Shown: positions 17,083 through 33,926, counted from the stretch's first letter. The stretch is DNA of 64,000 nucleotides from a virus (IMGVR_UViG_3300032893_000032:7715-71714); one strand, 5' to 3'. A program made the numbers and translations. Notes: generated by a model from the sequence alone, not told the origin.

Positions 17083-17907
17083 ATGAACTACATGGGTGGG
17101 AAATTTCGACAGGGGAAGAAGATCGCAGAGGTGGTGGCGAGACTGTCGGCGGGCGGGGGGAGATTGTATTACGAACCGTTCTGCGGGGCAATGGGGTCGG
17201 CTTATCAAGTACTGGACCGCTGTGGCGTGAATTTAGCCGGAAGCCGCCTATCGGATGTATCCTCTCCCTTAATAACAATGTGGACGGCGGTCTTGAACGG
17301 ATGGGAACCTCCTGACCAAGTCACCGAGGAGTTTTATGACTACGTGAAGTTGATCCAAGACCCCGACGACCCTATTACGGCTTTTGTTGGCTTCGGACTC
17401 TCCTTCGGCGGGAAGTATTTCGGAACATTCGCTCGATCCAAGCCCGGAAAGAAGCCGCACGGGCACGACGCGGGGTGCGCGAAGAGGTCGTGTAAGAGAC
17501 GCGCCTCCGTTCTATCAAAACACGGGGCGAAGGTCTATTGCTGTGACTACCGGGAAGTTATAGACTCCGGCCAGATCTTTTACCTTGATCCCCCGTACCA
17601 CCCCGGAAAAGGGAGGAATAAGTGCCACGACTTCGCCGGGGGGTTCGACACCCAGGAGTTCTTCGAGTACGCCCGGATGCTGGTGGCGCTGGGCAACCGA
17701 GTGATAGTGACGGGATTCGATGCCCCAGACGACTGGCGGGTGATCCATTCTTGGGGCGACACGGTAGTCCGCCACTACGCCGGGAAGGGGTCGGATGGGA
17801 CCTGTGAGTCGATCTACGCCCATGTGTCGCAGGTGGAGGACGGGACGTTCGACGCCTACCTGCATACGAAGGCGGAGGGAAAGGAGGCTGTCGCCCGTGC
17901 CCGTTAG
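17083..17907 (+). CDS. D12-class (Dam-like) DNA amino-methyltransferase
   Basis: NYMGGK, EPFCGAMG (SAM-binding) and YLDPPY catalytic motif. Confidence 0.9.
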   Translation: MNYMGGKFRQGKKIAEVVARLSAGGGRLYYEPFCGAMGSAYQVLDRCGVNLAGSRLSDVSSPLITMWTAVLNGWEPPDQVTEEFYDYVKLIQDPDDPITAFVGFGLSFGGKYFGTFARSKPGKKPHGHDAGCAKRSCKRRASVLSKHGAKVYCCDYREVIDSGQIFYLDPPYHPGKGRNKCHDFAGGFDTQEFFEYARMLVALGNRVIVTGFDAPDDWRVIHSWGDTVVRHYAGKGSDGTCESIYAHVSQVEDGTFDAYLHTKAEGKEAVARAR

Positions 17908-21882: not shown

Positions 21883-22482
21883 ATGGTAGTGACGGAAGTA
21901 CAATTCGACCCCAGACAGATCCTGGGACCGGCGGACACGGACAAGCACCTTGCCCCCCGATCCAAGGGCCTGCACCTGTCGCAGATCTACGACGACCTAC
22001 AGCAGTCGGCAAGGGGTATGGTCATCGGCCAGGACAAGTTGACGAGTGAGGAATTGCAGTGGTACCGCAGCGTCGGATATGTATGGGAGAGGGTGGTGGA
22101 CGATGCCTTCGCCAAATGTCTGCTGTCGCCTAATTGCGTACGACTGGGAGAGGTAACGGTCGACGGAATAACGGGGTCGCCGGATCTCGTGGACCTGTCG
22201 TCGGACGACTGGGTCGTGGTGGATACAAAAGCAACATTCAAATCGTCGCGGAAGCTGGACGATCTGGAGAAGAACTTCTGGACGTGGACGGTGCAGCTGA
22301 AGGGGTACTGCTACATGGTGAAGGCGACCCGAGCGCGGCTGCTGGTAATGCATATCTGTGGTAACTATGCGCCGCCCCGACCGATAGTGAAGCAGTTGGA
22401 ACTGGAATTCACGCAGGAAGAGCTACAGCAGAACTGGAACGTCCTTGTGGCTCATGCCCGCCGGAGGAAATGGTTAAAATGA
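21883..22482 (+). CDS. PD-(D/E)XK Cas4/RecB-like exonuclease
   Basis: HLSQI, GITGSPD, VVDTK and QLKGY motifs. Confidence 0.8.
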   Translation: MVVTEVQFDPRQILGPADTDKHLAPRSKGLHLSQIYDDLQQSARGMVIGQDKLTSEELQWYRSVGYVWERVVDDAFAKCLLSPNCVRLGEVTVDGITGSPDLVDLSSDDWVVVDTKATFKSSRKLDDLEKNFWTWTVQLKGYCYMVKATRARLLVMHICGNYAPPRPIVKQLELEFTQEELQQNWNVLVAHARRRKWLK

Positions 22483-22916
22483 CGGACGGCACACGCATTA
22501 CCCATTTCGACGGCCCGTACAATTTCCTGTCGAACTTCTATCGGGTAGATATCGAATTTGAAGGGGTGGTATACCCGTCCGTAGAGCACGCCTATCAGGC
22601 GGCTAAGACGCTGGATACGGGGGAGCGTATCAGGATCGCCCAACTCCCTAGCCCGGCTGCCGCCAAGAAAGCGGGGAGGAAGGTGGAGCTACGGCCCCAC
22701 TGGGACGCGATGCGGATAGACGTGATGCATGAACTCCTACGCCGGAAGTTCTACCTCGGCGACGGCCTGAGGGAGCGGCTGCTGGCCACCGGGAACGCCA
22801 CCCTAGTGGAAGGGAACTGGTGGGGGGATAACTTCTGGGGGTCATGCCCACCTAATGGGCGTGGTGCTAACAACCTAGGAAAGCTCCTAATGAAGGTAAG
22901 AGAGGAATTAAAATGA
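22479..22916 (+). CDS. NADAR (YbiA-like) protein
   Basis: FLSNFY, YPSVEHAYQAAK, LLATG.A.LVEGN.WGD.FWG and G.NNLGKLLMKVR. Confidence 0.95.
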   Translation: MTDGTRITHFDGPYNFLSNFYRVDIEFEGVVYPSVEHAYQAAKTLDTGERIRIAQLPSPAAAKKAGRKVELRPHWDAMRIDVMHELLRRKFYLGDGLRERLLATGNATLVEGNWWGDNFWGSCPPNGRGANNLGKLLMKVREELK

Positions 22917-23686
22917 AGATTATTAGGCCGTATGCCCGAATCACTTCTGACTCCCACGCCCATATTCCACTAAACGGGATGCGGCATATTGAGTGGTGCG
23001 CCCGTATTTCCCACCGTTCGGAGGACGCCCAGTCACAAGACTCCTGGCGGCGGCTGATCCAGTCGGTGGTGTTGGAGCACGGGGACTGGTCGGTGGTGGA
23101 GCATGTCAGCGTGACTGTTGACGCGGTGGTCGACCGGGGAATAACACACGAGTGGGTGAGACACCGGCTATTCTCGTATACGCAAGAGTCAACGAGGTTC
23201 GTGAACTACGAGAAGAAGATGGCACCGAGTTTCATTTACCCGAAGCCGGAGGTAGAGTGCCTTCTGTGCATGAACGGTCACGAACTCCGCCACGACTACA
23301 AAAATCCTTATGGTGTGTGGTGGCACAGCGATGTCAGTTTACGGACACCGGAAGAATGCGCTAATCGGAACTGCGCGTATGATCCGCGTTGGCTAAATGC
23401 GATTAATGAGGCGGAAACTTCCTACATCTCACTTGTCAAAAATGGGTGGAGGCCACAGGAGGCCCGGTCCGTCTTCCCTAACGCTCTCGCCTCCCGCCTA
23501 GTCACCACCGGCAACCTCCGCAACTGGCGACACTTTTTCATCATGCGGACCACCGCCGAGGCCCACCCGCAGATGCGGCAGGTAACCATTCCGCTGCTGG
23601 CGGAGTTCAAGTCCAAGTTCCCGCTGATCTTCGACGACATCGAACCAACGGCGAAACAATCGGAATCCATGAAAAGGATGCGGTAG
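22913..23686 (+). CDS. thyX: Flavin-dependent thymidylate synthase
   Basis: RHRLFSYTQESTR signature; EARSVFPN; NLRNWRHF..R...AHPQMR. Confidence 0.95.
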   Translation: MKIIRPYARITSDSHAHIPLNGMRHIEWCARISHRSEDAQSQDSWRRLIQSVVLEHGDWSVVEHVSVTVDAVVDRGITHEWVRHRLFSYTQESTRFVNYEKKMAPSFIYPKPEVECLLCMNGHELRHDYKNPYGVWWHSDVSLRTPEECANRNCAYDPRWLNAINEAETSYISLVKNGWRPQEARSVFPNALASRLVTTGNLRNWRHFFIMRTTAEAHPQMRQVTIPLLAEFKSKFPLIFDDIEPTAKQSESMKRMR

Positions 23687-24875: not shown

Positions 24876-25114
24876 ACATCTCCTGTCCCAATTGCCGCGC
24901 CGTCATCATCTCCTCCCTTTCCACCGCCCGCCATCCCTCCCCCGACATCTGGTCGCGGGAAGTAGTCTGTAGCCGCTGCCGGGCGGTATACCGGATAGAG
25001 GTAAATCTGCTAAGAGAAGGGGAGACGAAAGAAGAAAGAGCGGGGAGAAAGGAAAAAGAGCAGGGGAAAGGGGGTAAGCCCGATGAAGTCGATAACGCTG
25101 CTCAGCGATCATGA
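24872..25114 (+). CDS. Zn-ribbon protein
   Basis: CPNC...CSRC; ATGA overlap. Confidence 0.6.
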   Translation: MNISCPNCRAVIISSLSTARHPSPDIWSREVVCSRCRAVYRIEVNLLREGETKEERAGRKEKEQGKGGKPDEVDNAAQRS

Positions 25115-25421
25115 GGCGGATGTGCTGCAGGCCATCCATAGGGAGGCCCAGCGCGCTGTCCTCTTCCACGGGGAAGTTACCGACGACCCCTGCCGCGTGA
25201 TCGCCAACCTGACGAAGGAACTGGGGGAGGCGGCGCAGGAAGTGACGAAGATGACCAGCCGGTCGATGAAGGAGCGGGAGGGGAGGAACGACCCGGAAGA
25301 AAAGATCCTCCCGGTGACGAGGGAGGACAGGCTGGCGAGAATCGCGATGGAGCTGGTACAGGTGGCGGCTTACTGCTACCTGGTGGTAATGAAAATTGAA
25401 CAAGGTGGATACCGGGATTGA
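25083..25421 (+). CDS. mazZ: MazG-like NTP pyrophosphohydrolase (MazZ-like)
   Basis: LTKELGEAAQ...ELVQVAA all-alpha MazG motifs; lies just upstream of purZ. Confidence 0.7.
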   Translation: MKSITLLSDHEADVLQAIHREAQRAVLFHGEVTDDPCRVIANLTKELGEAAQEVTKMTSRSMKEREGRNDPEEKILPVTREDRLARIAMELVQVAAYCYLVVMKIEQGGYRD

Positions 25422-25425
25422 TAGG

Positions 25426-25454
25426 TTGACGTCGGCAAGACTGCGTGGTATACT
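25426..25454 (+). promoter_or_regulatory. Promoter for LAGLIDADG-purZ; likely leaderless first ORF
   Basis: TTGACG-17 bp-(TGG)TATACT with an ATG 6 nt after the -10. Confidence 0.7.
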
Positions 25455-25460
25455 GATCCC

Positions 25461-26096
25461 ATGACTGGTAAGGTACTTTACGCATGGCTGGCTGCGCTTA
25501 TCGACGGGGAAGGGGCGGTAATGCTGATAGACAAGCGGGGGAGTGGGCACGCGGTCCGTGTTGGTCAATTCCGCCCCACCATCAATGTGTCGAACTCCGA
25601 CTACCGACTGATCCTAGCTCTGATGAAGGAGACAGGGATTCACCGAGTGTACGCCCACAAAAAGGGAAGCCCCAACGGAAAAGTTCGCAATCGATACGTG
25701 TGGTCGTGGCGTCTTGCCAACCGGGACATACGAGAGTGGGGGCCAAAAATTCTTCCGTTTCTGGTTATTAAGCGACGTCAGGTAGAGCTGATATTGGAGT
25801 ACGTAAACTTCAACTATCGGTGGTTGACGCTACGTAAGAACAAAAAGAAAGTTGAGGAGATGAAGCGACGCAAGGTGGAGATCTTCACGGAGATACGGGC
25901 GCTTAACGAACGCGGGATCGACAATCGCCATCTTATTCCAGAAATTAACCGGATTCGTAATGAGTATAATGCCAAATTAAAACAGGAGAGGGGAAACAAG
26001 TCATGGAAAGAGCTAAGGGAACAGGAAACCCGATCACAGTCGTCCAAGGCGGTTTTTGGGGATCGGAGGGGAAGGGCGCAGTTACAGCGTTCCTGA
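25461..26096 (+). CDS. Single-motif LAGLIDADG homing endonuclease
   Basis: WLAALIDGEGAV, INVSNSD..LI and ILPFLVIKRRQ; lower GC than its neighbours. Confidence 0.9.
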   Translation: MTGKVLYAWLAALIDGEGAVMLIDKRGSGHAVRVGQFRPTINVSNSDYRLILALMKETGIHRVYAHKKGSPNGKVRNRYVWSWRLANRDIREWGPKILPFLVIKRRQVELILEYVNFNYRWLTLRKNKKKVEEMKRRKVEIFTEIRALNERGIDNRHLIPEINRIRNEYNAKLKQERGNKSWKELREQETRSQSSKAVFGDRRGRAQLQRS

Positions 26097-27448
26097 CTAA
26101 CAGGGACAAAGTCGACTTCTGCGTACGCGGAGGAACTATCAACGCTGGTCACACGGCCTACTATAAAGGGAAGCCGTATGTATGTCAGCAAATCCCAGTG
26201 GGGTTCACTAACCCCAACACGGCATTGGTAATTGCTCCTGGCGCTTATGTACACCCGTTCGTCCTTGCCAAAGAGATTGAAATGATAAACAAGGCCACAG
26301 GCGAGGATGTCCGTAAGCGCCTATTTATTGATCACCGCTGTGGGCTTCATTTACCCGTTCATACTGACCGGGCAAAAGTAGCAAACAGGCATCACTCAAT
26401 GGGCGCAGTCGGCAAGGGGTGTTCGGAAGCGGTGGTCGACAAGATCCGGAACCGGGGGAGTGGGAAGACGCAGCTGTTTGAACAGTGGCTTCAGGAATTT
26501 AGACTGACGGATAGGGAGGAGAAGTTCGCCGACTGCATCGGGGCTGGAAGGAGACTGACGGACGTCCTCGGTCCGGTGGCTTTCGCCGACACCACGGCCC
26601 TCCTTAACCGGAGCTGGGATGGCGGGGCAAAGATACTGGTGGAAGGGACGCAGGGGACGCTGCTGGATCTTCACCTCGGTCCCTACCCCTACACTACGCA
26701 CAAGCAGACTCAGTGTGGAAACTGGATAGCGGAATGCGGACTATCCCCTAGCCTGCCCTACGAAGTGGTGCTGGTCGTCCGTTCGTACCCCATCCGCGTG
26801 GCGGGGAACTCCGGACCGATGCCTCGGGAGATCTCCTGGGTGGATCTGGCGCGGAGGATCAACGGAAGGCTGGAGGCCCACGGTCTGCCGCCACGGGTAA
26901 GGGAAAGCAGCTTGCGACAGTTCGAATCCGCCTGTCAACATGTCGCCGGGATGTCCGATCCCCCGAGGAACTGGAAAATCGAAAACTGGCCGCAGGAGAT
27001 AAGGGAGAAGAATCCGGAATTCGTCTCGGAACTTCATAAGGCGGCCCTTGAACAGCTGGAGACGGAGGTGGTGGACGACCTAAGGAACCTATTCGAACTG
27101 ACAACGGTAACGAAGAAGCTCCGGAGAATTGCGGAGCTGGACCGGGATACGCTGAAGCGGAGTGTCCAGATGAACCGCCCGGCGTACATTGTCCTAACGT
27201 TTGCCAACTACCTATTCCCTGAGATGTGGGGGTGGGGGCAAGACGAATTCGATGGATTGGACAGGCGGAATGGGGAGTCGTTCGACAATCTCTTCACCTA
27301 CGCCAGCGAGCTGGAGGCGGACACCGGGACGGAGGTAAGGTGGTGCACGCTGGGGCCGGAGGACAAACACTTCGTCGACGTGCTGGGAAGGACGAATGGT
27401 CAGTACCCCATGCATTTCACCGGGACGGAGAATGAGGTAAACGGGTGA
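26003..27448 (+). CDS. purZ: PurZ-family (adenylosuccinate synthetase-like) 2-amino-deoxyadenylosuccinate synthetase
   Basis: GGFWGSEGKG (Ser for PurA Asp13), NAGHT, EGTQG, YPIRVAGNSGP, TTVTKKLRR and LTFANY. Confidence 0.88.
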   Translation: MERAKGTGNPITVVQGGFWGSEGKGAVTAFLTNRDKVDFCVRGGTINAGHTAYYKGKPYVCQQIPVGFTNPNTALVIAPGAYVHPFVLAKEIEMINKATGEDVRKRLFIDHRCGLHLPVHTDRAKVANRHHSMGAVGKGCSEAVVDKIRNRGSGKTQLFEQWLQEFRLTDREEKFADCIGAGRRLTDVLGPVAFADTTALLNRSWDGGAKILVEGTQGTLLDLHLGPYPYTTHKQTQCGNWIAECGLSPSLPYEVVLVVRSYPIRVAGNSGPMPREISWVDLARRINGRLEAHGLPPRVRESSLRQFESACQHVAGMSDPPRNWKIENWPQEIREKNPEFVSELHKAALEQLETEVVDDLRNLFELTTVTKKLRRIAELDRDTLKRSVQMNRPAYIVLTFANYLFPEMWGWGQDEFDGLDRRNGESFDNLFTYASELEADTGTEVRWCTLGPEDKHFVDVLGRTNGQYPMHFTGTENEVNG

Positions 27449-28191
27449 TCACCGTCGACCCCAGGACGGGTTCCGACAGACTCTTCGCCAGACTCCGGCA
27501 GAAGAAGGGCCTACCGGTGGTATCCGGGACGCTGGAGTTCGGCGACGCCTGCTGGCTTGGTCAGGGGCCGGAGGGGAGACCAGTGACCGTGGGGGTTGAG
27601 TACAAGTGCGTCCCAGACGTATTAAGTTGTATCGCCAACGGGAGGTTCGCCGGTCACCAGCTCCCCGGTCTGCTGGCGACCTACGACTTGCCGATTCTGC
27701 TGGTCGAGGGGGATACGAGGGCTAGTTTGAAGGATGGCAGCCTGCAGATTCGCCACCCAGTGAAGAAGTTCTGGTTCGAACCGAAGTCGGGCGGAAGAGG
27801 GTGGATGTACCGGGACCTAGTCCACTGGCTGGCAACGGTTCAGTTTAAAGCCGGGGTACGGGTGGCGAGGACCGGAGATCTGGAGGAAAGCGCGGAATGG
27901 GTGGCTGCCTCCTATTCGTGGTGGAATTCCAAAACATGGGAAGATCACAAGTCCCATTTACATCTGCATTCATCCCTGGACGATCAGGTCAGCATCCTTA
28001 AGCCCACTCTGTTGAGACAGCTGGCAGCTTGTCTCCCCGGCGTCGGCCTGCTAAAATCGGCGGCGGTAGCCAGACACTTCCGTAGCCCATTCGAAATGCT
28101 GATGGCGGACGAGGGGGAGTGGGAAAAGATCGAGGGAATAGGAAAGGGAACGGCGAGGAAGATATGTCAGGCGATGATGAACGGAAAATAG
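27445..28191 (+). CDS. ERCC4/XPF-like structure-specific nuclease with (HhH)2
   Basis: ITVDPR, LEFGD, VEYK..D..S...GR and LLVEG; LPGVG and IEGIGKGTA HhH motifs. Confidence 0.88.
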   Translation: MITVDPRTGSDRLFARLRQKKGLPVVSGTLEFGDACWLGQGPEGRPVTVGVEYKCVPDVLSCIANGRFAGHQLPGLLATYDLPILLVEGDTRASLKDGSLQIRHPVKKFWFEPKSGGRGWMYRDLVHWLATVQFKAGVRVARTGDLEESAEWVAASYSWWNSKTWEDHKSHLHLHSSLDDQVSILKPTLLRQLAACLPGVGLLKSAAVARHFRSPFEMLMADEGEWEKIEGIGKGTARKICQAMMNGK

Positions 28192-28601
28192 GGGGACCAC
28201 CCAGTGCCGATGGGGCAAGGGGGTGGCAGGCGGTGCTTGATAGGGCCGAAATTGCCTTATATAAGAATCGGGCCAGAAGATCGCGGCTACTAGCCGCCAT
28301 CAAGTTATTCAAGGATAAAATTAGAACCGGGGAGCCTTGGCCAGTTAATTGTGAAGCTGGCCGGTATCCAGACAGCGAGGAAAGGCCAATGATCCAGCTT
28401 CTTGATTCCGATGTCGACCTCCTGGAGGCATTCCTCAGGCGTCTGGTCACCAATGTGGTCATCCGGCAGGAGATCCGCGACACCGCCCTATCCATGCTTC
28501 GGCGGCTGGAGCTGGCCCGGAAGGGGTACCCGGACTACCGGAAGCCGATGGAGGGGAAGGCCGAGGAGAGGGCGGAAGGGATGGAAGGGGAGAAGGGGTA
28601 G
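28164..28601 (+). CDS. Hypothetical protein (start uncertain, possibly 28390)
   Basis: Fills the gap between the ERCC4 nuclease and the polymerase. Confidence 0.4.
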   Translation: MSGDDERKIGGPPSADGARGWQAVLDRAEIALYKNRARRSRLLAAIKLFKDKIRTGEPWPVNCEAGRYPDSEERPMIQLLDSDVDLLEAFLRRLVTNVVIRQEIRDTALSMLRRLELARKGYPDYRKPMEGKAEERAEGMEGEKG

Positions 28602-28605
28602 GGGT

Positions 28606-31449
28606 ATGGTGACGAAGACGCGCAAGAAAGGTAGTCGTCCTGCAACGTCCTTCAACGGACGCGGGCTGCGGACCGTCACCCCGCCCTCTACCCCTCCCGC
28701 AGCCCCCGGAGCCGTCTCCGGTATATCCCGGTTGCTCCACCCCCCCTACCGGCAGGAGGACTGGGTATCGGCGTACGGACCAGAGAAAGCGGCGATTTAT
28801 GTCTTAGGTGAGCGTCCGGGGGAGGACGAATGGCGACGGGGGATTCCCTTTATCGGTCCGTCTGGCCGTGTGCTCTCGGACTGGTTCGAACGGGCCGGAC
28901 TATCGCTCGACTGCGCCCGACGGTGGAACGTGGTAAACGACTACAAGCCGGGGAACCCGGAACCGGCGAAGTGGGAAGTGGAAAGGGACAGGGAGAAAGT
29001 CAAGGAGGACATCGACAGGTCGGGGGCAAGGGTAATTGCGGCGGTGGGGGCGCACGCCATCCGGTGGGTGTTGGGGGAAGGGTACGACTTGGACACGGTG
29101 AACGGGGTGCCGATCTGGTGGACAGAGGGGAGAATCTGTGTCCCGGTTTATCATCCGGCGAACTCCTTCTACCAGATCCATTTGGCGGCGAACGGGCAGG
29201 CTGACGTAAGGACGGTGGCTAGAGTCGTTCGAAGGGAGCAATGGCCGCTCACCGACACCTTCCTCTGTCCGGATTACCAAGAGGCGAAGTGGGGGGAACT
29301 CCACTCCCATATTCTACTTGACGCGGACGTACGCCGGATAGCGATCGATACCGAGGGGAGCCGGAGCGGGCCGTGGTGCCTAACCTACTCCACAGCCGCC
29401 GGAGATGCCCGTCTGGTTAAAGCTGGTAGCCCGGAATTGAAGTGGTTCATAAAGGAGCTGGAGATATTCACCCTGTGCGGTGGGAAGGTTGTTCTCCATA
29501 ACGCGATGTTCGACTTGGGGGTGCTGCGGGCGATGGGGATAGACTTACCATTCGGGTCGGTGATCGATACGATGGTCCGCGCCTACAACCTCTGTCTGGA
29601 GCCGCAGGGGCTGAAGGCTCTCGCCTACCGCCACGCCGGGATGGAGATGTCGAGCTACGAGGAGCTGGTGCACGAGGCCAATCAGGCGCATGCCGTAGAC
29701 TACATCATGCAGGCGGCGTTCGGATGGAACTGGCCGGATTCCGAACCCTACCTCGTGATGGAGAGGAACAAGGAAACGAAGAAGTTCGAACCGAAGGTGA
29801 AGAAGCCGTGGTCCATCCAGAGGTATCTGGACAGGCTGGTGGCGGACAAATGTAAGAATCCGGAGGAAATAGACCTGAGGAAGAGGTGGGAGGGGATTGA
29901 CGTAGAGGTGAGGAGACCGGTGGAAGATGTACTCGGTCCGATGCCCGTGGCGACTCTTGACGACGTTCCCTTTGAGAAGGCCTGCGCCTATGCCAACCGG
30001 GACGCAGATGCGACTCTTCGGATAGACCCGGTGCTCGAGCGAATGCAGGCGGACATGGGGATGCTGACGGTGGACCCCGACCAGCCTAGGGTGTTCGAGA
30101 TCGACATGGGGGCGCTGCCGATGTTCGAACGGATGCAGGCTAACGGGTTCCGGGCGGACAAGGGGCACTTTGTACAGCTGGGGCAGAGGATGGGAAGGGA
30201 GATGGAAAGGCTCCGGGGAGAGATCCACGGGCTGACGGGGGCGGAGATCAATCCGAATTCCCCGGATCAGGTGGCGGAACTGATCTTCGGACAGCTGAAC
30301 CTTCCGGTGGGGAAGCTGACCAAGGGTGGGAAGAGCGGGAAGAAGAAGCCGTCGACGAACGACAAGGTACTGGAGGCGATGAGATTCGTCCACCCGGTGA
30401 TGCCGCTGATCCTGGACTACCGGGAGTGTAGCAAGATTAAGTCCAGCTTCTGCGACCCTTTGTCCCAGCTGCTGGGAAGGGACGGAAGGATAAGGGGGAC
30501 GATAAAGATCACGAGGGTGCCGACTGGCAGACCGTCGATGGTCGACCCCAACCTCCTTGCCCAACCGGTAAGGTCGGAACTGGGGAGGGAGTTAAGGAAG
30601 GGATTCATCGCGGAGGAAGGGTGTGTGCTGGGGGACTGGGACCTGTCGCAGATCGAGATGTGCGTCATGGGGGACCAGTCGATGGACCCGGTGCTGGTAG
30701 ACCTCCTATGTGATCCCAACAAGGACGCGCACTCGGAGACTGCCGCCTTAATCTTCGGATTGCCGCTACACAAGGGGACGAAGAAGGAAAGATACGCAGA
30801 GGTGGACGAGATCCGGCACCGGTATCCGGCGAAACGGGTGGGGTTCGGCGTGATAACGGGGATAACGGGAGTGGGACTGGAAGCGCAGATGGCGCTGGCG
30901 AACGCGACGAAGAACGGACTGCCGCTGGGGCAGGGCGGGGACCCGTGGACCGAGGATGACTGCGATGGGATGATCGAGGAGTGGTTCAAGGTATATCGGG
31001 GAGTAAAACAGTACATGTTGAACTGCCGGGCGGAACTGAGGCAATACGGGTATGTCACCGACCAGTGGGGTCGCGTGAGGTATTTACCGGGGGTCTACTC
31101 AGAAAAGTCGTGGGTGAGGGAAGAGGCGGAGCGGCAGAGCCACAGCCACAAGATCTCGTCCTCGGCCCAGGGGATCATGAAGCTGGCGATGCGGGAGATC
31201 TGGGGATTCATGCTGCAGGAGTGGGGGGACGAGGGGAGAACGCACAAGGTGGGGGACACGGTCTACCCCGGACGGCACGTCGAACCACTGCTATCCATTT
31301 ACGATAGTCTGGTGATGGAACTCGACGATGACCCAGTGTTCAAGGAATATTGGAATTCCGTAATGGTCGGGTGTATGACGCAGACGGTGAAACTGAAAGT
31401 TCCGATCCGCGTAAAGGGAAGCTGGTCGTATAGATGGGGAGGAGACTAG
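28606..31449 (+). CDS. polA: Family A DNA polymerase with N-terminal family-4 UDG-like domain and 3'-5' exonuclease
   Basis: UDG GERPG...PFIGPSG...YHPA; exonuclease IDTE, HNAMFD and YANRDA; polymerase TGR, DLSQIE, R..AK...FG and IYDS. Confidence 0.93.
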   Translation: MVTKTRKKGSRPATSFNGRGLRTVTPPSTPPAAPGAVSGISRLLHPPYRQEDWVSAYGPEKAAIYVLGERPGEDEWRRGIPFIGPSGRVLSDWFERAGLSLDCARRWNVVNDYKPGNPEPAKWEVERDREKVKEDIDRSGARVIAAVGAHAIRWVLGEGYDLDTVNGVPIWWTEGRICVPVYHPANSFYQIHLAANGQADVRTVARVVRREQWPLTDTFLCPDYQEAKWGELHSHILLDADVRRIAIDTEGSRSGPWCLTYSTAAGDARLVKAGSPELKWFIKELEIFTLCGGKVVLHNAMFDLGVLRAMGIDLPFGSVIDTMVRAYNLCLEPQGLKALAYRHAGMEMSSYEELVHEANQAHAVDYIMQAAFGWNWPDSEPYLVMERNKETKKFEPKVKKPWSIQRYLDRLVADKCKNPEEIDLRKRWEGIDVEVRRPVEDVLGPMPVATLDDVPFEKACAYANRDADATLRIDPVLERMQADMGMLTVDPDQPRVFEIDMGALPMFERMQANGFRADKGHFVQLGQRMGREMERLRGEIHGLTGAEINPNSPDQVAELIFGQLNLPVGKLTKGGKSGKKKPSTNDKVLEAMRFVHPVMPLILDYRECSKIKSSFCDPLSQLLGRDGRIRGTIKITRVPTGRPSMVDPNLLAQPVRSELGRELRKGFIAEEGCVLGDWDLSQIEMCVMGDQSMDPVLVDLLCDPNKDAHSETAALIFGLPLHKGTKKERYAEVDEIRHRYPAKRVGFGVITGITGVGLEAQMALANATKNGLPLGQGGDPWTEDDCDGMIEEWFKVYRGVKQYMLNCRAELRQYGYVTDQWGRVRYLPGVYSEKSWVREEAERQSHSHKISSSAQGIMKLAMREIWGFMLQEWGDEGRTHKVGDTVYPGRHVEPLLSIYDSLVMELDDDPVFKEYWNSVMVGCMTQTVKLKVPIRVKGSWSYRWGGD

Positions 31450-31453
31450 GACC

Positions 31454-31750
31454 ATGACAAATCAGACCAAGACCAATCCGTACCTCGTCCCGGCCACCGT
31501 CCGGTGCGCGGGTCCGAACTGTCAGAAGGTGAAGGGGGAGACGAACCACTGGTTCACCGTCGCGCCGAATACCACCACCGACGGACCGTATAGCAGCATA
31601 CTGACTGTCTGGAGGGGGGCACAGGCTGTTTACGAACTAGACTCGTCTTTCCTCCCGGTCTGTGGTGAGGAGTGTCTCCAGAAGGTCATCAGCCACATTC
31701 TACACACGCCCAGGCAGGAAGAGGCGAAACAGGAGGCGAAAGATGTTTAG
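31454..31750 (+). CDS. Zn-finger protein
   Basis: CAGPNC.KVKGETNHW...VCGEEC. Confidence 0.65.
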   Translation: MTNQTKTNPYLVPATVRCAGPNCQKVKGETNHWFTVAPNTTTDGPYSSILTVWRGAQAVYELDSSFLPVCGEECLQKVISHILHTPRQEEAKQEAKDV

Positions 31751-32171
31751 TCCAGGGGACAGAGAAGTTCTCGACCGAGTTCTGATGCTGGCGGAGGCGA
31801 TCTATACCAACACCCGCCCCCGCTTATCCGCAACCCTCAACTACAGACCCAGAAGAATGGGAGAAGGAAAAGGAAAAGGAGAAAGGAAAATGGCGACGAT
31901 CAGAGTGGGACAGACGGCTAGCCCCGTCTACCAAGAGTGGAGTGGGCCGAACGGCACGGGGGACAAGCTCCCGCCCGCAGGCCCGGTGACGTACGCGAGC
32001 GACAACCCGGCGGCGGTGACGGTCGATTCGAATTCCGGGGTGGCTACCGGTGTAGCGGCGGGAACGGCCAACATCACGGCTACGGACGCTGCGGACAGCC
32101 TCACCGCTACGACCCAGATCACGGTGGTGGAGGAGGCTGTTTCGGCAACGCTCGACTACACGCCGAACTAG
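31743..32171 (+). CDS. Ig-like (Big_2) domain protein with an internal in-frame start at 31890
   Basis: VTYASDNPAAVTVDS.SGVATGVAAGTANITAT. Confidence 0.8.
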   Translation: MFSPGDREVLDRVLMLAEAIYTNTRPRLSATLNYRPRRMGEGKGKGERKMATIRVGQTASPVYQEWSGPNGTGDKLPPAGPVTYASDNPAAVTVDSNSGVATGVAAGTANITATDAADSLTATTQITVVEEAVSATLDYTPN

Positions 32172-32227
32172 CCAGATCTAGGGGCGAGAGGCAAGGGAAA
32201 GGTAAATGGCCGACCGCCCCTAGGTAC

Positions 32228-32256
32228 TTGACAGGGAGGCTGGTAAGTGGTAGACT
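32228..32256 (+). promoter_or_regulatory. sigma70-like promoter
   Basis: tacTTGACA-17 bp-(TGG)TAGACT, just after a CTAGGGGCG/CGCCCCTAG hairpin. Confidence 0.75.
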
Positions 32257-32276
32257 GTGGAATGGAGGCGGGAGAT

Positions 32277-32837
32277 ATGGTACAAAAGAAAAAGAAAACG
32301 GCAGTGCGAACCAAGGCGGAACTGGGAAGGAAACTAAATCCGGAGCGGAAGAAGGAACTGGAAAAAGCGGCCAGCCGACCGAAGCCTGCCCCCATGGCGG
32401 AGGAAGTGGAGCAGGAGCTGGAGTTTACCGTCCGCGAGTGCGATCTCGAACAGGTGGACGAGGGCTACCAGCAGATGCTGGAGGAGCTGGCTCTGGACCG
32501 GACGAAGTATAAGGATCTGGCGGAGACGAACGAGAAGCTGCGGAAGGACACCGACGCCCTGCTGCAGGGGATGATGGCGGACATCGGGTACAACCGGATA
32601 AACCTTCCGGGGGATGGTAAACTGGTGGTAAAGGAATGCCGGGGAAGGTCCGGGTCGACAGTCTCCGTGCCGAAGCTGCTGGAGCAGGGAGTGGACCCGG
32701 ACGTAATTAGAAAGGCGACGGTGCCGGGGAAGGCTTACTATTACGTGAAGGTGGAGGAGAGGACGGAGAAGGAGCAGGAGGAGTACGACCGGAGGAGACT
32801 GGCGGAGGCAGCCAGAGCGACAGGCGGTAGGCAATGA
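32277..32837 (+). CDS. Hypothetical coiled-coil phage protein
   Basis: Basic N-terminus, coiled coil and KLLEQGVDPDVIRKAT motif. Confidence 0.6.
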   Translation: MVQKKKKTAVRTKAELGRKLNPERKKELEKAASRPKPAPMAEEVEQELEFTVRECDLEQVDEGYQQMLEELALDRTKYKDLAETNEKLRKDTDALLQGMMADIGYNRINLPGDGKLVVKECRGRSGSTVSVPKLLEQGVDPDVIRKATVPGKAYYYVKVEERTEKEQEEYDRRRLAEAARATGGRQ

Positions 32838-32953
32838 GCCTGATCTGGGCGCAGCAGGACTTCGAACGGCGTCGGCGAGGATGGAGGCTGTGGAGCAGGC
32901 AGCCGTGGAGCTGGGGAATGGTGAAACACCTGTGGAGGCTGATATGGGAATGA
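32834..32953 (+). CDS. Trp/Arg-rich 39-aa peptide
   Basis: ATGA overlaps at both ends; MSLIWAQQDFERRRRGWRLWSRQPWSWGMVKHLWRLIWE. Confidence 0.5.
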   Translation: MSLIWAQQDFERRRRGWRLWSRQPWSWGMVKHLWRLIWE

Positions 32954-33492
32954 CGATTGACCTCCTCGACCTCAGCCACGTACCCCGATGGACGACGCAC
33001 CCCGTGGCCCGTCCGCAGTCCGTCGCCGAACACTCCTACCGCGTAGCCATCCTTGTTAACCGTCTAGCTGGGTTGTTCAACGAACAGCCGGACAGGTTCA
33101 CCACTCTGGACCTAGACATCACCATGCGGGCCGTGTGGTGGGCCTTGTTACACGATGGCCCGGAGGTGAAGACCGGGGACCTGCCGCATCCGGCCAAGCG
33201 CATGATCGGGGCTGGAGAGTGGGAAAGGATGGAGGAGGAAGCCTGCCCCTGGTACCGATGGTTCAAACCGGACCCGAACGGGATTGTCTACCGGATGGTC
33301 CAGCTGGCGGACGTGGTGGAGGCCCTGACCTGGATGTCGAGGTATGGGCAGGGGTGCAGGGACAGGTTCAACGGGGAAGATGTGGTAGGGCAACTGAGAG
33401 CGAGGATTGGGAAGGCGGCGGAAGAGGCGGACAAGGTATTCCCTGGACTAGGGGGAGCGGTGAAAGAACTGGTAAAGGAGACATGTGAATGA
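32950..33492 (+). CDS. datZ: HD-domain dNTP/dNMP phosphohydrolase (DatZ/YfbR-like)
   Basis: RW....QSVAEHSYRV, LLHD.PE..TGDLP.PAK and V.LAD..EA; co-occurs with purZ. Confidence 0.82.
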   Translation: MTIDLLDLSHVPRWTTHPVARPQSVAEHSYRVAILVNRLAGLFNEQPDRFTTLDLDITMRAVWWALLHDGPEVKTGDLPHPAKRMIGAGEWERMEEEACPWYRWFKPDPNGIVYRMVQLADVVEALTWMSRYGQGCRDRFNGEDVVGQLRARIGKAAEEADKVFPGLGGAVKELVKETCE

Positions 33493-33926
33493 AGTTCGAT
33501 CTAGACTTTCCTGACTCCATCTACAACATCGAACCGGAGACGTGGAACCGGTTCGCCGAGGCCCTTCAGGGCATGCTCAACCGGATGGCGATGAGCTACC
33601 ACAAGTACCATTCCTCCCGCCCCCTGTACGATTCCTGCCCGGAAGAGACCAAGATGGTATTCACCCGGCAGAGAATGGCGATGTACGACGGGGGAGGGCC
33701 GGGGGAGAACTTGTGCGACTGCGGGGTGGGTATAGGAGTTCCAATCCGCCGTCATCGATTAAACTGCTTTCTGTCTCGGGTTAAACTTAGTACCGGAAAT
33801 GTGGAAAACTGTCTGGACGCAGCCAACGGTCTGGTATTAGAGATGTTGTTCCCCACCCACCCCAAGGCACACTTCCGGTCACAGTCGAGTGAGGAGTCTC
33901 CGGGGATCACCTATAAGGAGGATTAG
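33489..33926 (+). CDS. Putative all-alpha nucleotide pyrophosphohydrolase-like protein
   Basis: M.NRMAMSYHKY, TGN.E...DAAN...E..P.HPKAHF.S..S.ESPG, a pattern seen in a recurrent phage family. Confidence 0.55.
   Translation: MKFDLDFPDSIYNIEPETWNRFAEALQGMLNRMAMSYHKYHSSRPLYDSCPEETKMVFTRQRMAMYDGGGPGENLCDCGVGIGVPIRRHRLNCFLSRVKLSTGNVENCLDAANGLVLEMLFPTHPKAHFRSQSSEESPGITYKED

Follow-up and report, generated by a model that had tools for sequence, protein, structure and literature searches.

Does the replication block of an uncultivated virus from the IMG/VR database encode a working pathway for 2-aminoadenine (Z) DNA, and how are its enzymes related to those of the known Z systems? The question is raised by a 64,000-nucleotide stretch of DNA (IMGVR_UViG_3300032893_000032:7715-71714), hereafter the window, which is part of a 71,714-bp virus record with an estimated completeness of 76%. 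The virus is a myovirus because the window carries, outside the block in question, genes for a tail sheath, a baseplate wedge, a baseplate hub, a portal and a large terminase; the tail sheath and the two baseplate genes bear out the lineage given in a preliminary description of the locus. The replication and nucleotide block lies on the plus strand, at about 12-37 kb of the window, and the interval analyzed here, 25083-33926, runs from the first base of a 112-aa open reading frame (ORF), denoted m112, to the last base of a 145-aa ORF. We consider it probable (about 0.68), judging from the predicted proteins, that this block encodes a working Z pathway centered on an enlarged, 481-aa PurZ-like enzyme. 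The genes and the two insertions of this enzyme are:

25083-25421, plus strand: m112, 112-aa MazG-like candidate and possible MazZ counterpart (PHROG 2831, 1.1e-5)
25461-26096, plus strand: homing-endonuclease-like ORF, 211 aa (PHROG 5046 'HNH endonuclease', 6.7e-15)
26003-27448, plus strand: enlarged PurZ-like candidate, 481 aa (PF00709, 6.6e-49; PHROG 1211 '2-aminooxy adenylosuccinate synthetase', 9.9e-63)
26459-26587, plus strand: insertion 1 of the PurZ-like candidate, approximately residues 153-195 (alignment gap in short PurA; AlphaFold2 model)
26837-27082, plus strand: insertion 2 of the PurZ-like candidate, approximately residues 279-360 (gaps in short homologues in the L-INS-i alignment; AlphaFold2 model)
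27445-28191, plus strand: ERCC4/XPF-type nuclease with a C-terminal HhH (PF02732, 9.5e-12)
28402-31449, plus strand: fusion of a family-4 UDG, a 3'-5' exonuclease and PolA (PF03167, 6.7e-16; PF01612, 8e-7; PF00476, 1.7e-69)
32247-32837, plus strand: 196-aa protein without a family match, with homologues in the PolA-DatZ interval of related loci
32881-33492, plus strand: DatZ-like HD phosphohydrolase (PHROG 7076 'dATP triphosphohydrolase', 9.3e-23)
33489-33926, plus strand: 145-aa conserved ORF with 16 relatives and without a family match

In the proposed pathway, the 481-aa enzyme would join dGMP and aspartate, with ATP or dATP as the phosphate donor, to yield N6-succino-2-amino-2'-deoxyadenylate, which host PurB and kinases would convert to dZTP. 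The DatZ-like HD hydrolase would remove dATP, m112 may supply dGMP from dGTP, and the UDG-exonuclease-PolA fusion would copy the genome.

The purZ-like gene recognized in the preliminary description holds up on the profile matches given above, and the enzyme belongs to a sizeable family. A protein search with the 481-aa sequence scored 8000 candidates, of which 1691 reached E <= 1e-5; among the matches listed, which include a fragment of the window protein itself, 119 relatives of 406-508 aa share 44-58% identity with it, all from metagenome sources. Together with the window sequence and 22 related loci, these proteins make up a set of 142 sequences, a lower bound for what we call the enlarged clade. 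The lineage has no deposited phage representative in the GenBank phage collection, because among 50,697 phage records no match exceeded 35% identity and 80% coverage of the protein was reached in only two of the 193 matching records. The scan of IMG/VR for close relatives with the single protein gave no match, and the alignment-based scan did recover relatives.

Motifs were compared in an L-INS-i alignment of 96 proteins, with the genes of S-2L, phiVC8, Wayne, an Acinetobacter phage, Frizzle and a Bacillus phage and E. coli purA as references, along with two archaeal short PurA proteins scoring above the cut-off of the NCBIfam model NF003295. All the motifs quoted in the preliminary description (GSEGKG, GAVGKG, PIRVAGNSGP, LTFANY and Lys372 at E. 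coli R303) are found in the translation at the alignment positions claimed. The P-loop is GDEGKG in E. coli and archaeal PurA, GSTGKG in canonical PurZ, GSEAKG in PurZ0 and GSEGKG in the window. The loop following the RV pair is TRVGAGP in E. coli and archaeal PurA, PIRVGGTSGG, PIRVAEWSGP or PIRVAGWSGP in canonical PurZ, and PIRVAGNSGP in both PurZ0 and the window. The base-specificity motif reads T-K-L-D in E. coli and T-K-I-D in archaeal PurA, N-F-C-N-Y, N-F-A-Q-Y or N-F-A-N-Y in canonical PurZ, T-M-L-D-Q or S-F-A-D-Q in PurZ0, and T-F-A-N-Y in the window. The mixture of signatures described earlier is genuine: the scaffold motifs GSEGKG and PIRVAGNSGP match PurZ0 (Wayne, Frizzle), and the donor pocket matches canonical PurZ.

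Residue roles were assigned from structures described in PMC8342488 and the preprint 10.1101/2025.10.22.683976. Ser21, at the position of E. coli Asp13, corresponds to phiVC8 S14 and S-2L S23 and is Ser in 138 of the 142 clade sequences; Thr367 aligns with phiVC8 T262; Arg265-Val266 corresponds to S-2L R240-V241, the pair responsible for the clash with a 2'-OH, and Val266 is present in all 142 sequences. On the donor side, Phe400, Asn402 and Tyr403 correspond to phiVC8 F295, N297 and Y298, with Phe400 and Asn402 at the positions of E. coli K331 and D333, and are conserved in 142, 124 and 137 of the 142 sequences, respectively; Gly451-Pro452 aligns with S-2L G335-P336. Adenine is stacked by F295 and Y298 in phiVC8 and by F306 and P336 in S-2L, and S-2L Q308, the counterpart of phiVC8 N297, clashes with the 2-amino group (PMC8342488; 10.1101/2025.10.22.683976). 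At the residue-402 position, the 18 remaining members of the enlarged clade have Asp. The change of substrate suggested in the preliminary description found no positive evidence: Ser21, Thr367 and Val266 on the dGMP side and Phe400, Asn402 and Tyr403 on the ATP side are all kept. The Lys noted there at the R303 position is correctly identified as Lys372 (Lys in 141 of the 142 sequences), but it is nothing special, being the rule in both PurZ (phiVC8 K267; PMC8342488) and PurZ0.

Phylogenetic analysis likewise agrees with the earlier suggestion of a new PurZ lineage. The tree comes from a quick maximum likelihood search (LG+G4; 96 rows, none dropped; 358 of 845 columns kept), with branch support from the Shimodaira-Hasegawa-like approximate likelihood ratio test (SH-aLRT) and long bacterial-type PurA as the outgroup. 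Asp-type archaeal short PurA branches at the base, and the Ser-type rows all fall together in a group of 87 (SH-aLRT 96), apart from Asp-type PurA. The 38 rows of the enlarged clade hold together (100), their sister being two short proteins from cells (93); the clade belongs to a 67-row group (94) that also includes PurZ0 (a clade with support 100), IMG/VR proteins of approximately 350 aa with F-x-D-Y (99) and the IMG/VR pair of L039 and L066 (99). Canonical PurZ (100), including the phiVC8 and S-2L proteins, falls outside this group and joins the Bacillus phage protein; a further 12 cellular Ser-type proteins form a group of their own (94). The deeper branching order is provisional, and the tree supports placing the 481-aa enzyme in a predicted third, so far metagenome-only PurZ lineage. 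The enlarged clade may already be represented among the 29 PurZ from dZ contigs in the preprint (10.1101/2025.10.22.683976) or among the 'over 2000' predicted Z viruses cited in PMC13128860.

The two insertions reported in the preliminary description are present, at approximately residues 153-195 and 279-360, and the enlargement they cause is real, but it is a trait of the clade and not peculiar to the window gene, given that all 142 sequences carry insertion 2. This segment, which follows the PIRVAGNSGP loop and precedes the Asp-binding TTVTKK loop, spans 60-100 residues across the clade vs a few to about ten residues in short homologues; it contains the clade-invariant residues W279, N287 and S342 and is modeled as helices at 279-292, 301-316, 331-336, 338-350 and 354-360, with the predicted local distance difference test score (pLDDT) of the block mostly at 86-98. 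Insertion 1 corresponds to chain residues 145-158 of Pyrococcus PurA and is modeled as three short helices (159-169, 171-178 and 185-189); the window segment is among the nine longest of the 142. The AlphaFold2 model of the entire enzyme, built from a 33-row alignment, has a pLDDT of 86.2 and a predicted template modeling (TM) score of 0.88. Its core matches short PurA (5k7x) with a TM score, normalized by target, of 0.85, PurZ with 0.78-0.80 (6fko, 0.80) and PurZ0 (7vf6) with 0.78. In sequence comparison with the PDB, Pyrococcus PurA ranks first (4e-40), followed by PurZ0 7vf6 (2.3e-32), the protein of Gordonia phage Archimedes (PMC12884076), and E. coli PurA (about 6e-30); canonical PurZ of phiVC8 and S-2L score 1e-20 and 3.5e-13, respectively.

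Gene context was analyzed with iterated hidden Markov models (HMMs) over all fetched loci and with a map of the 22 enlarged-clade loci, BLASTP co-occurrence being too insensitive for the small genes. The order m112, PurZ, ERCC4, UDG-PolA, 196-aa gene and DatZ-like gene recurs in the related loci, with m112 represented in 12 of the 22, ERCC4 in 13, UDG-PolA in 12, and the 196-aa and DatZ-like genes in 10 each; many of these loci end at contig borders, where a missing member does not amount to absence. The m112 gene lies 5' of the enlarged purZ in 12 loci, and ERCC4 lies 3' of purZ in 13. The 196-aa protein has no Pfam, PHROG or NCBIfam match. Three relatives encode a protein that matches the N-terminal domain of dATP/dGTP diphosphohydrolase (PF18909) between ERCC4 and PolA, and a fourth encodes one upstream of purZ, three of the four scoring above the cut-off. 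The window ORF 28164-28601, which occupies the same slot, was considered as a counterpart and rejected, as it has no Pfam match and no similarity to the gene of the relative L002 (E 0.07).

A dUTPase-profile match, indicative of a PurZ0-type partner, was found near purZ in 7 of the 22 enlarged-clade loci, mostly those basal in the tree, and a Pfam scan of three such genes (in L017, L020 and L021) detected the dUTPase domain in all three. The iterated dUTPase profile matched in 109 loci, among them many other, cellular ones, and had no match in the window (64 kb of the 71.7-kb record scanned). On the restriction-resistant, dZ-enriched contigs of aquatic phages, the Pfam domains PF00709, HD_3/YfbR-like, PolA/exonuclease and UDG are linked (10.1101/2025.10.22.683976); the window block contains all of them. 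Of the 13 places where m112 and purZ are both found, only 2, the window and L002 (L002:9519-9992), have an ORF with a LAGLIDADG-type motif intervening; in the window, this homing-endonuclease-like ORF overlaps the start of purZ by 94 nt, and its LAGLIDADG_1 score is only 0.068. A 468-aa open frame in an assembly assigned to the phylum Patescibacteria (L195; G121:C3:93311-94633) matches PF00709 weakly, at 103 bits, and could be a gene of the enlarged clade carried by a phage contig within the bin.

The second component named in the preliminary description, a datZ-like gene, was confirmed as the HD ORF 32881-33492, with DatZ (6zpa, 3.3e-6) as its best PDB match in addition to the PHROG 7076 match. 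The protein matches the Pfam families YfbR-like (3.8e-12) and HD_3 (5.6e-11) and is 35% identical to S-2L DatZ over 82 aa (BLASTP, E 3e-10). It keeps the AEH, HD, E and GD metal ligands, and Trp37 corresponds to S-2L Trp20. A single iterated HMM unites it with DatZ of S-2L and phiVC8, an ORF of the Acinetobacter phage locus L165 and proteins of 10 IMG/VR loci. A later start, at Met22 or Met24, is possible.

The assignment of m112 as mazZ-like stands only in part: weak profile matches to MazG-type enzymes were obtained, but m112 has no Pfam match, BLASTP against S-2L MazZ gave E 1.2, and hhalign gave a probability of 0.2%. When a profile of 17 sequences was compared with the PDB, the MazG-type pyrophosphohydrolases 2gta (1.4e-3) and 5ie9 (1.8e-3) ranked behind a designed helical protein as the top match, and leads from the Atlas point to MazG with feature scores of at most 0.88, the structure match named MazG falling below the bar. 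Together, m112 is weakly predicted to be MazG-like. Alignment of the 17 members of the m112 family (A3) showed invariant R38, E46, E49, E90 and Q93, that is, E-x-x-E and E-x-x-Q; the pattern is E-x-x-E and E-x-x-D in S-2L MazZ and in the small gene that separates purZ from datZ in phiVC8. In MazZ, the metal ligands are four conserved acidic residues, numbered E35, E38, E50 and E53 for S-2L in PMC8342488. Comparison of the m112 and 145-aa families with MazZ and DUF550/DUF5664 profiles in hhalign gave probabilities of 0.2-0.9%; a strong hhalign match of S-2L MazZ to an Acinetobacter protein was discarded as trivial, the protein being already part of the MazZ alignment.

The 145-aa ORF had been taken for a further all-alpha hydrolase, a description that the searches do not sustain: there is no Pfam or PDB sequence match and no Foldseek match at E <= 0.001. 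Its AlphaFold2 model is poor (pLDDT 62.8), and Foldseek against the PDB, the Atlas and a PDB profile search yielded nothing usable. A relationship to PF18909/DUF5664 was not detected either, with no Pfam match in any of the 17 family members and hhalign probabilities of 0.4-0.9% with two profiles and 3.7% for one relative. The ORF is a conserved gene with 16 relatives and invariant R32, K39, Y40, G103, N104, E106, D110 and N113, among others. The family, which includes the relatives P0122-P0126, occurs in a short form of about 108 aa and a long form of 135-147 aa, the latter with an inserted C-x-C ... H ... C stretch that may, by its Cys and His residues, bind a metal.

The UDG-PolA fusion probably starts at ATG 28606, just past the stop of ORF 28119-28601. 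The UDG domain (28606-29300), read by eye, keeps the motifs G-E-R-P-G and H-P-A and may be active, unlike the UDG of N4-like UDG-PolA proteins. Motif B of the polymerase, near 30900, is K-R-V-G-F-G-V-I-T-G; position B4, as defined in PMC10201439, is Thr when aligned by eye, where DpoZ has Phe and Klenow Tyr766.

Several observations weigh against the Z pathway. The case for Z-DNA is built on homology throughout the clade. The enzyme scores 182.8 bits with the NCBIfam PurZ model NF038379 (amino_Aden_PurZ), below the curated cut-off of 300, and higher, 208.7 bits (cut-off 368), with the archaeal-type PurA model NF003295; on these scores, it lies between the curated PurA and PurZ families. The DatZ-likeness of the HD protein is modest, with 6zpa (3.3e-6) about tenfold ahead of YfbR (2.9e-5), and its Thr39 lies at the position of S-2L DatZ Ile22, the adenine-specificity residue; Thr or Ser at this position is common in dZ-enriched contigs, often with Tyr20 (10.1101/2025.10.22.683976). 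In m112, Gln93 is invariant where MazZ has the fourth acidic ligand, and UDG-PolA reaches only 87.6 bits with DpoZ_1 (cut-off 500) and 16.2 bits with DpoZ_2 (cut-off 350). The phylogeny comes from one quick search with SH-aLRT as the only support measure. Moreover, the PurZ signature residues are not confined to phages, the sister of the enlarged clade being short cellular Ser-type proteins (SH-aLRT 93); there is therefore less confidence that the residues alone give the substrate. The locus could, then, encode an auxiliary adenylosuccinate synthetase that acts on IMP and aspartate, perhaps with ATP in place of GTP, and boosts (d)ATP for ordinary A-DNA, with the HD protein serving as a general YfbR-type 5'-deoxynucleotidase. 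The higher score with the archaeal PurA model, the Pyrococcus protein as the best PDB match, the YfbR-like matches of the HD protein and the cellular housekeeping context of the nearest short relatives, which are the sole PurA homologue in three of the five assemblies tested, would all be in line with such a role. However, Asp13, 99% conserved in the PurA group, is Ser in all 147 phage PurZ-group sequences (PMC12884076), as it is in nearly all of the enlarged clade; the residue that would hold the ribose 2'-OH (E. coli R303) is here a Lys, and Val266 is retained, as it is in PurZ; PF18909 and DatZ-like partners are present in the relatives; and the 61 genomes from the phylum of a Saccharibacteria metagenome-assembled genome (MAG) with a Ser-type gene include 8 canonical full-length PurA and 2 divergent ones, so that the Ser type is not the standard PurA there. 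We regard this explanation as unlikely.

Two further alternatives concern the enzyme itself. The lineage might make Z while the window copy is impaired or shifted in nucleotide binding. The preliminary description had pointed to GAV in place of the phosphate-binding GTT/GST; GAVGKG is indeed present, but Ala135 is the norm in the clade (132 of 142), and it is Val136 (26408-26410, codon GTC) that is unique to the window copy, in the 5'-phosphate loop, with Thr in the other 141 sequences. Val136 aligns with E. coli T129 and with S-2L T132, a residue of the dGMP base pocket, and its codon is two changes from any Thr codon. Ala78, too, replaces a Gly found in the other 141 sequences, and both substitutions speak against a functional Z pathway in this particular virus. 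Over the 100 columns with a conservation of 90% or more, the window copy deviates five times, and these two changes are the unique ones; the 60 sequences compared have a median of one such deviation. Nevertheless, 3 of the 59 others deviate equally or more (5, 7 and 16 columns), Val and Thr are isosteric, the reading frame runs unbroken through all 481 aa with all other catalytic motifs kept, and the partner genes of the window are all intact; impairment by Thr136Val and Gly78Ala seems to us quite improbable. It is even harder to credit that the helical insertion near the aspartate loop gives the enzyme a different second substrate or product, for example through another amino-group donor or a non-Z purine modification. 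Insertion 2, with its three invariant residues, does separate the RV loop from the TTVTKK loop, whose S-2L counterpart contacts aspartate (PMC8342488), but the aspartate-loop residues TTVTKKLRR are those of PurZ and PurZ0, and Pfam, PHROG and NCBIfam scans found no extra modification enzymes in the replication block.

Thus weighed, a Z pathway remains the preferred interpretation, and the question becomes which known system it resembles. Trees of PurZ from GenBank viruses contain two subgroups, PurZ and PurZ0, each with its own phosphate donor, set of partner enzymes and polymerase (PMC12884076). The window enzyme resembles actinophage PurZ0 (7vf6, Wayne, Frizzle) in the Ser P-loop G-S-E-(A/G)-K-G, PIRVAGNSGP and the TTVT(K/Q/N)KxRR loop, in its place within the same 67-row group and in its PDB score, 2.3e-32 vs 1e-20 for canonical PurZ; the dUTPase-domain neighbors of basal enlarged-clade members recall the PurZ0 phages with DutZ. 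The differences are the F-x-N-Y base pocket with Asn402, where PurZ0 keeps the guanine-motif Asp (E. coli D333), the additional 100-120 residues or so contributed by the two insertions (PurZ0 has 363-379 aa), the separate clade in the tree, and the presence of a DatZ-like gene in a window without a dUTPase-profile match, whereas all 98 of 98 PurZ0 genomes encode DutZ and often also DmtZ (PMC12884076).

With canonical PurZ (phiVC8, 6fm1; S-2L, 7odx; Acinetobacter phages), the enzyme shares the pocket of F, N/Q and Y, the Ser at Asp13, the Arg-Val pair and the Lys at R303, and the locus, like those of S-2L and phiVC8, has a DatZ-like partner for purZ and, adjoining purZ, a small gene that is a MazG-type candidate. 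It is set apart by the P-loop GSEGKG instead of GSTGKG, the insertions, the tree position, the subthreshold NF038379 score and the polymerase, which is UDG-PolA and not DpoZ or PrimPol. As for the donor, PurZ0 reportedly uses GTP, a finding ascribed to Tong et al. 2023. In PMC12884076, the preference of PurZ0 and PurZ is given as 'ATP and GTP, respectively', which conflicts with the use of dATP/ATP by S-2L PurZ (PMC8342488); the order of donors in that sentence looks inverted. To archaeal short PurA (Pyrococcus horikoshii, 5k7x/2d7u; NF003295), the enzyme is similar in its short-PurA core and finds there its best sequence match (4e-40) and best fold match (0.85), but the archaeal proteins have Asp13 and the T-K-(I/L)-D motif and lack the AGNSGP loop extension and both insertions. 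The polymerase is of the same kind as the UDG-PolA fusions of PMC10201439 (N4-like cluster 17; SPO1, SP-10, SP-15); those fusions are not tied to Z genomes there, whereas in the enlarged clade UDG-PolA is a fixed neighbor of the PurZ-like gene, and the UDG motifs G-E-R-P-G and H-P-A, degenerate in the N4-like UDG, are present in the window.

A bolder scenario, which we put forward tentatively and hold to be possible but doubtful, is that the enlarged clade represents a third, independently assembled Z system. A PurZ0-type ancestor paired with a dUTPase-like partner, which the basal members would have kept, could have switched to ATP by an Asp to Asn replacement and gained a helical lid by the aspartate loop; the crown group could then have recruited DatZ, a Gln-bearing MazG-like protein and UDG-PolA, the last as a third, convergent Z-handling polymerase, extending Z-DNA to myoviruses. 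A large metagenome-only lineage in which a PurZ0 scaffold goes with the donor pocket of PurZ and with its partner DatZ would make clear the relation between the two systems, and the 124 Asn and 18 Asp members at a single position constitute a natural experiment on donor specificity. It would also offer new parts for Z-DNA in cells, namely, a PurZ carrying an additional subdomain and a UDG-PolA potentially able to deal with Z, and would place Z-DNA in contractile-tailed phages. The abstract of PMC8599892 names Siphoviridae and Podoviridae, whereas the virus described here is a myovirus; in the papers searched that mention both PurZ and myovirus, judged by titles and the opening lines of abstracts, no description of Z-DNA in contractile-tailed phages was found.

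Ser-type homologues are also found in cells. A pattern scan of one genome per species identified 114 relatives, many of them on megabase bacterial contigs, with Ser, PIRVAGNSGP and TTVTKKxRR. Such short PurA homologues, of about 330-390 aa and with the phage-type Ser P-loop, PIRVAGNSGP and TTVTKKxRR, come from bacteria and some archaea (loci L085-L161, e.g. L086:5989-6996, L099:5995-7119 and L124). In the Saccharibacteria MAG, the short Ser-type gene, which also has F-L-N-Y, is flanked by housekeeping genes, namely those for a PfkB kinase, transketolase, an S1 protein, RNase Y and iPGM, and encodes the only PurA homologue. Of the 5 assemblies tested, 3 have no PF00709 match other than the Ser-type protein, and in the other 2, from Dehalococcoidia and Methylobacterium, it is a second copy beside canonical PurA. 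In general, it is unlikely to be the ordinary PurA of Patescibacteria, since only 11 of the 61 genomes have any PF00709 match, 8 of these being canonical and full-length. In the Dehalococcoidia MAG (L099:5518-8028), an HTH regulator gene is followed by the Ser-type PurA-like gene and then by a dCTP-deaminase/dUTPase-like gene (PF22769, 7.1e-11), a pairing that recalls actinophage PurZ0 with DutZ.

The replication block of the window contains several other genes. The NADAR enzymes, to which the third of those below belongs by its domain, undo ADP-ribosylation of guanine in DNA, and this gene, just 5' of ThyX, may have a counter-defense role.

17083-17907, plus strand: DNA methyltransferase (PHROG 56, 2.8e-21)
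21883-22482, plus strand: PD-(D/E)XK nuclease (PF12705, 6.7e-7)
22470-22916, plus strand: NADAR-domain protein (PF08719, 2.2e-26; PHROG 1017, 5.8e-45)
22913-23686, plus strand: flavin-dependent thymidylate synthase ThyX, in the 5' part of the block (PF02511, 2e-39)
31887-32171, plus strand: small Big_2-domain ORF (PF02368, 9.4e-7)

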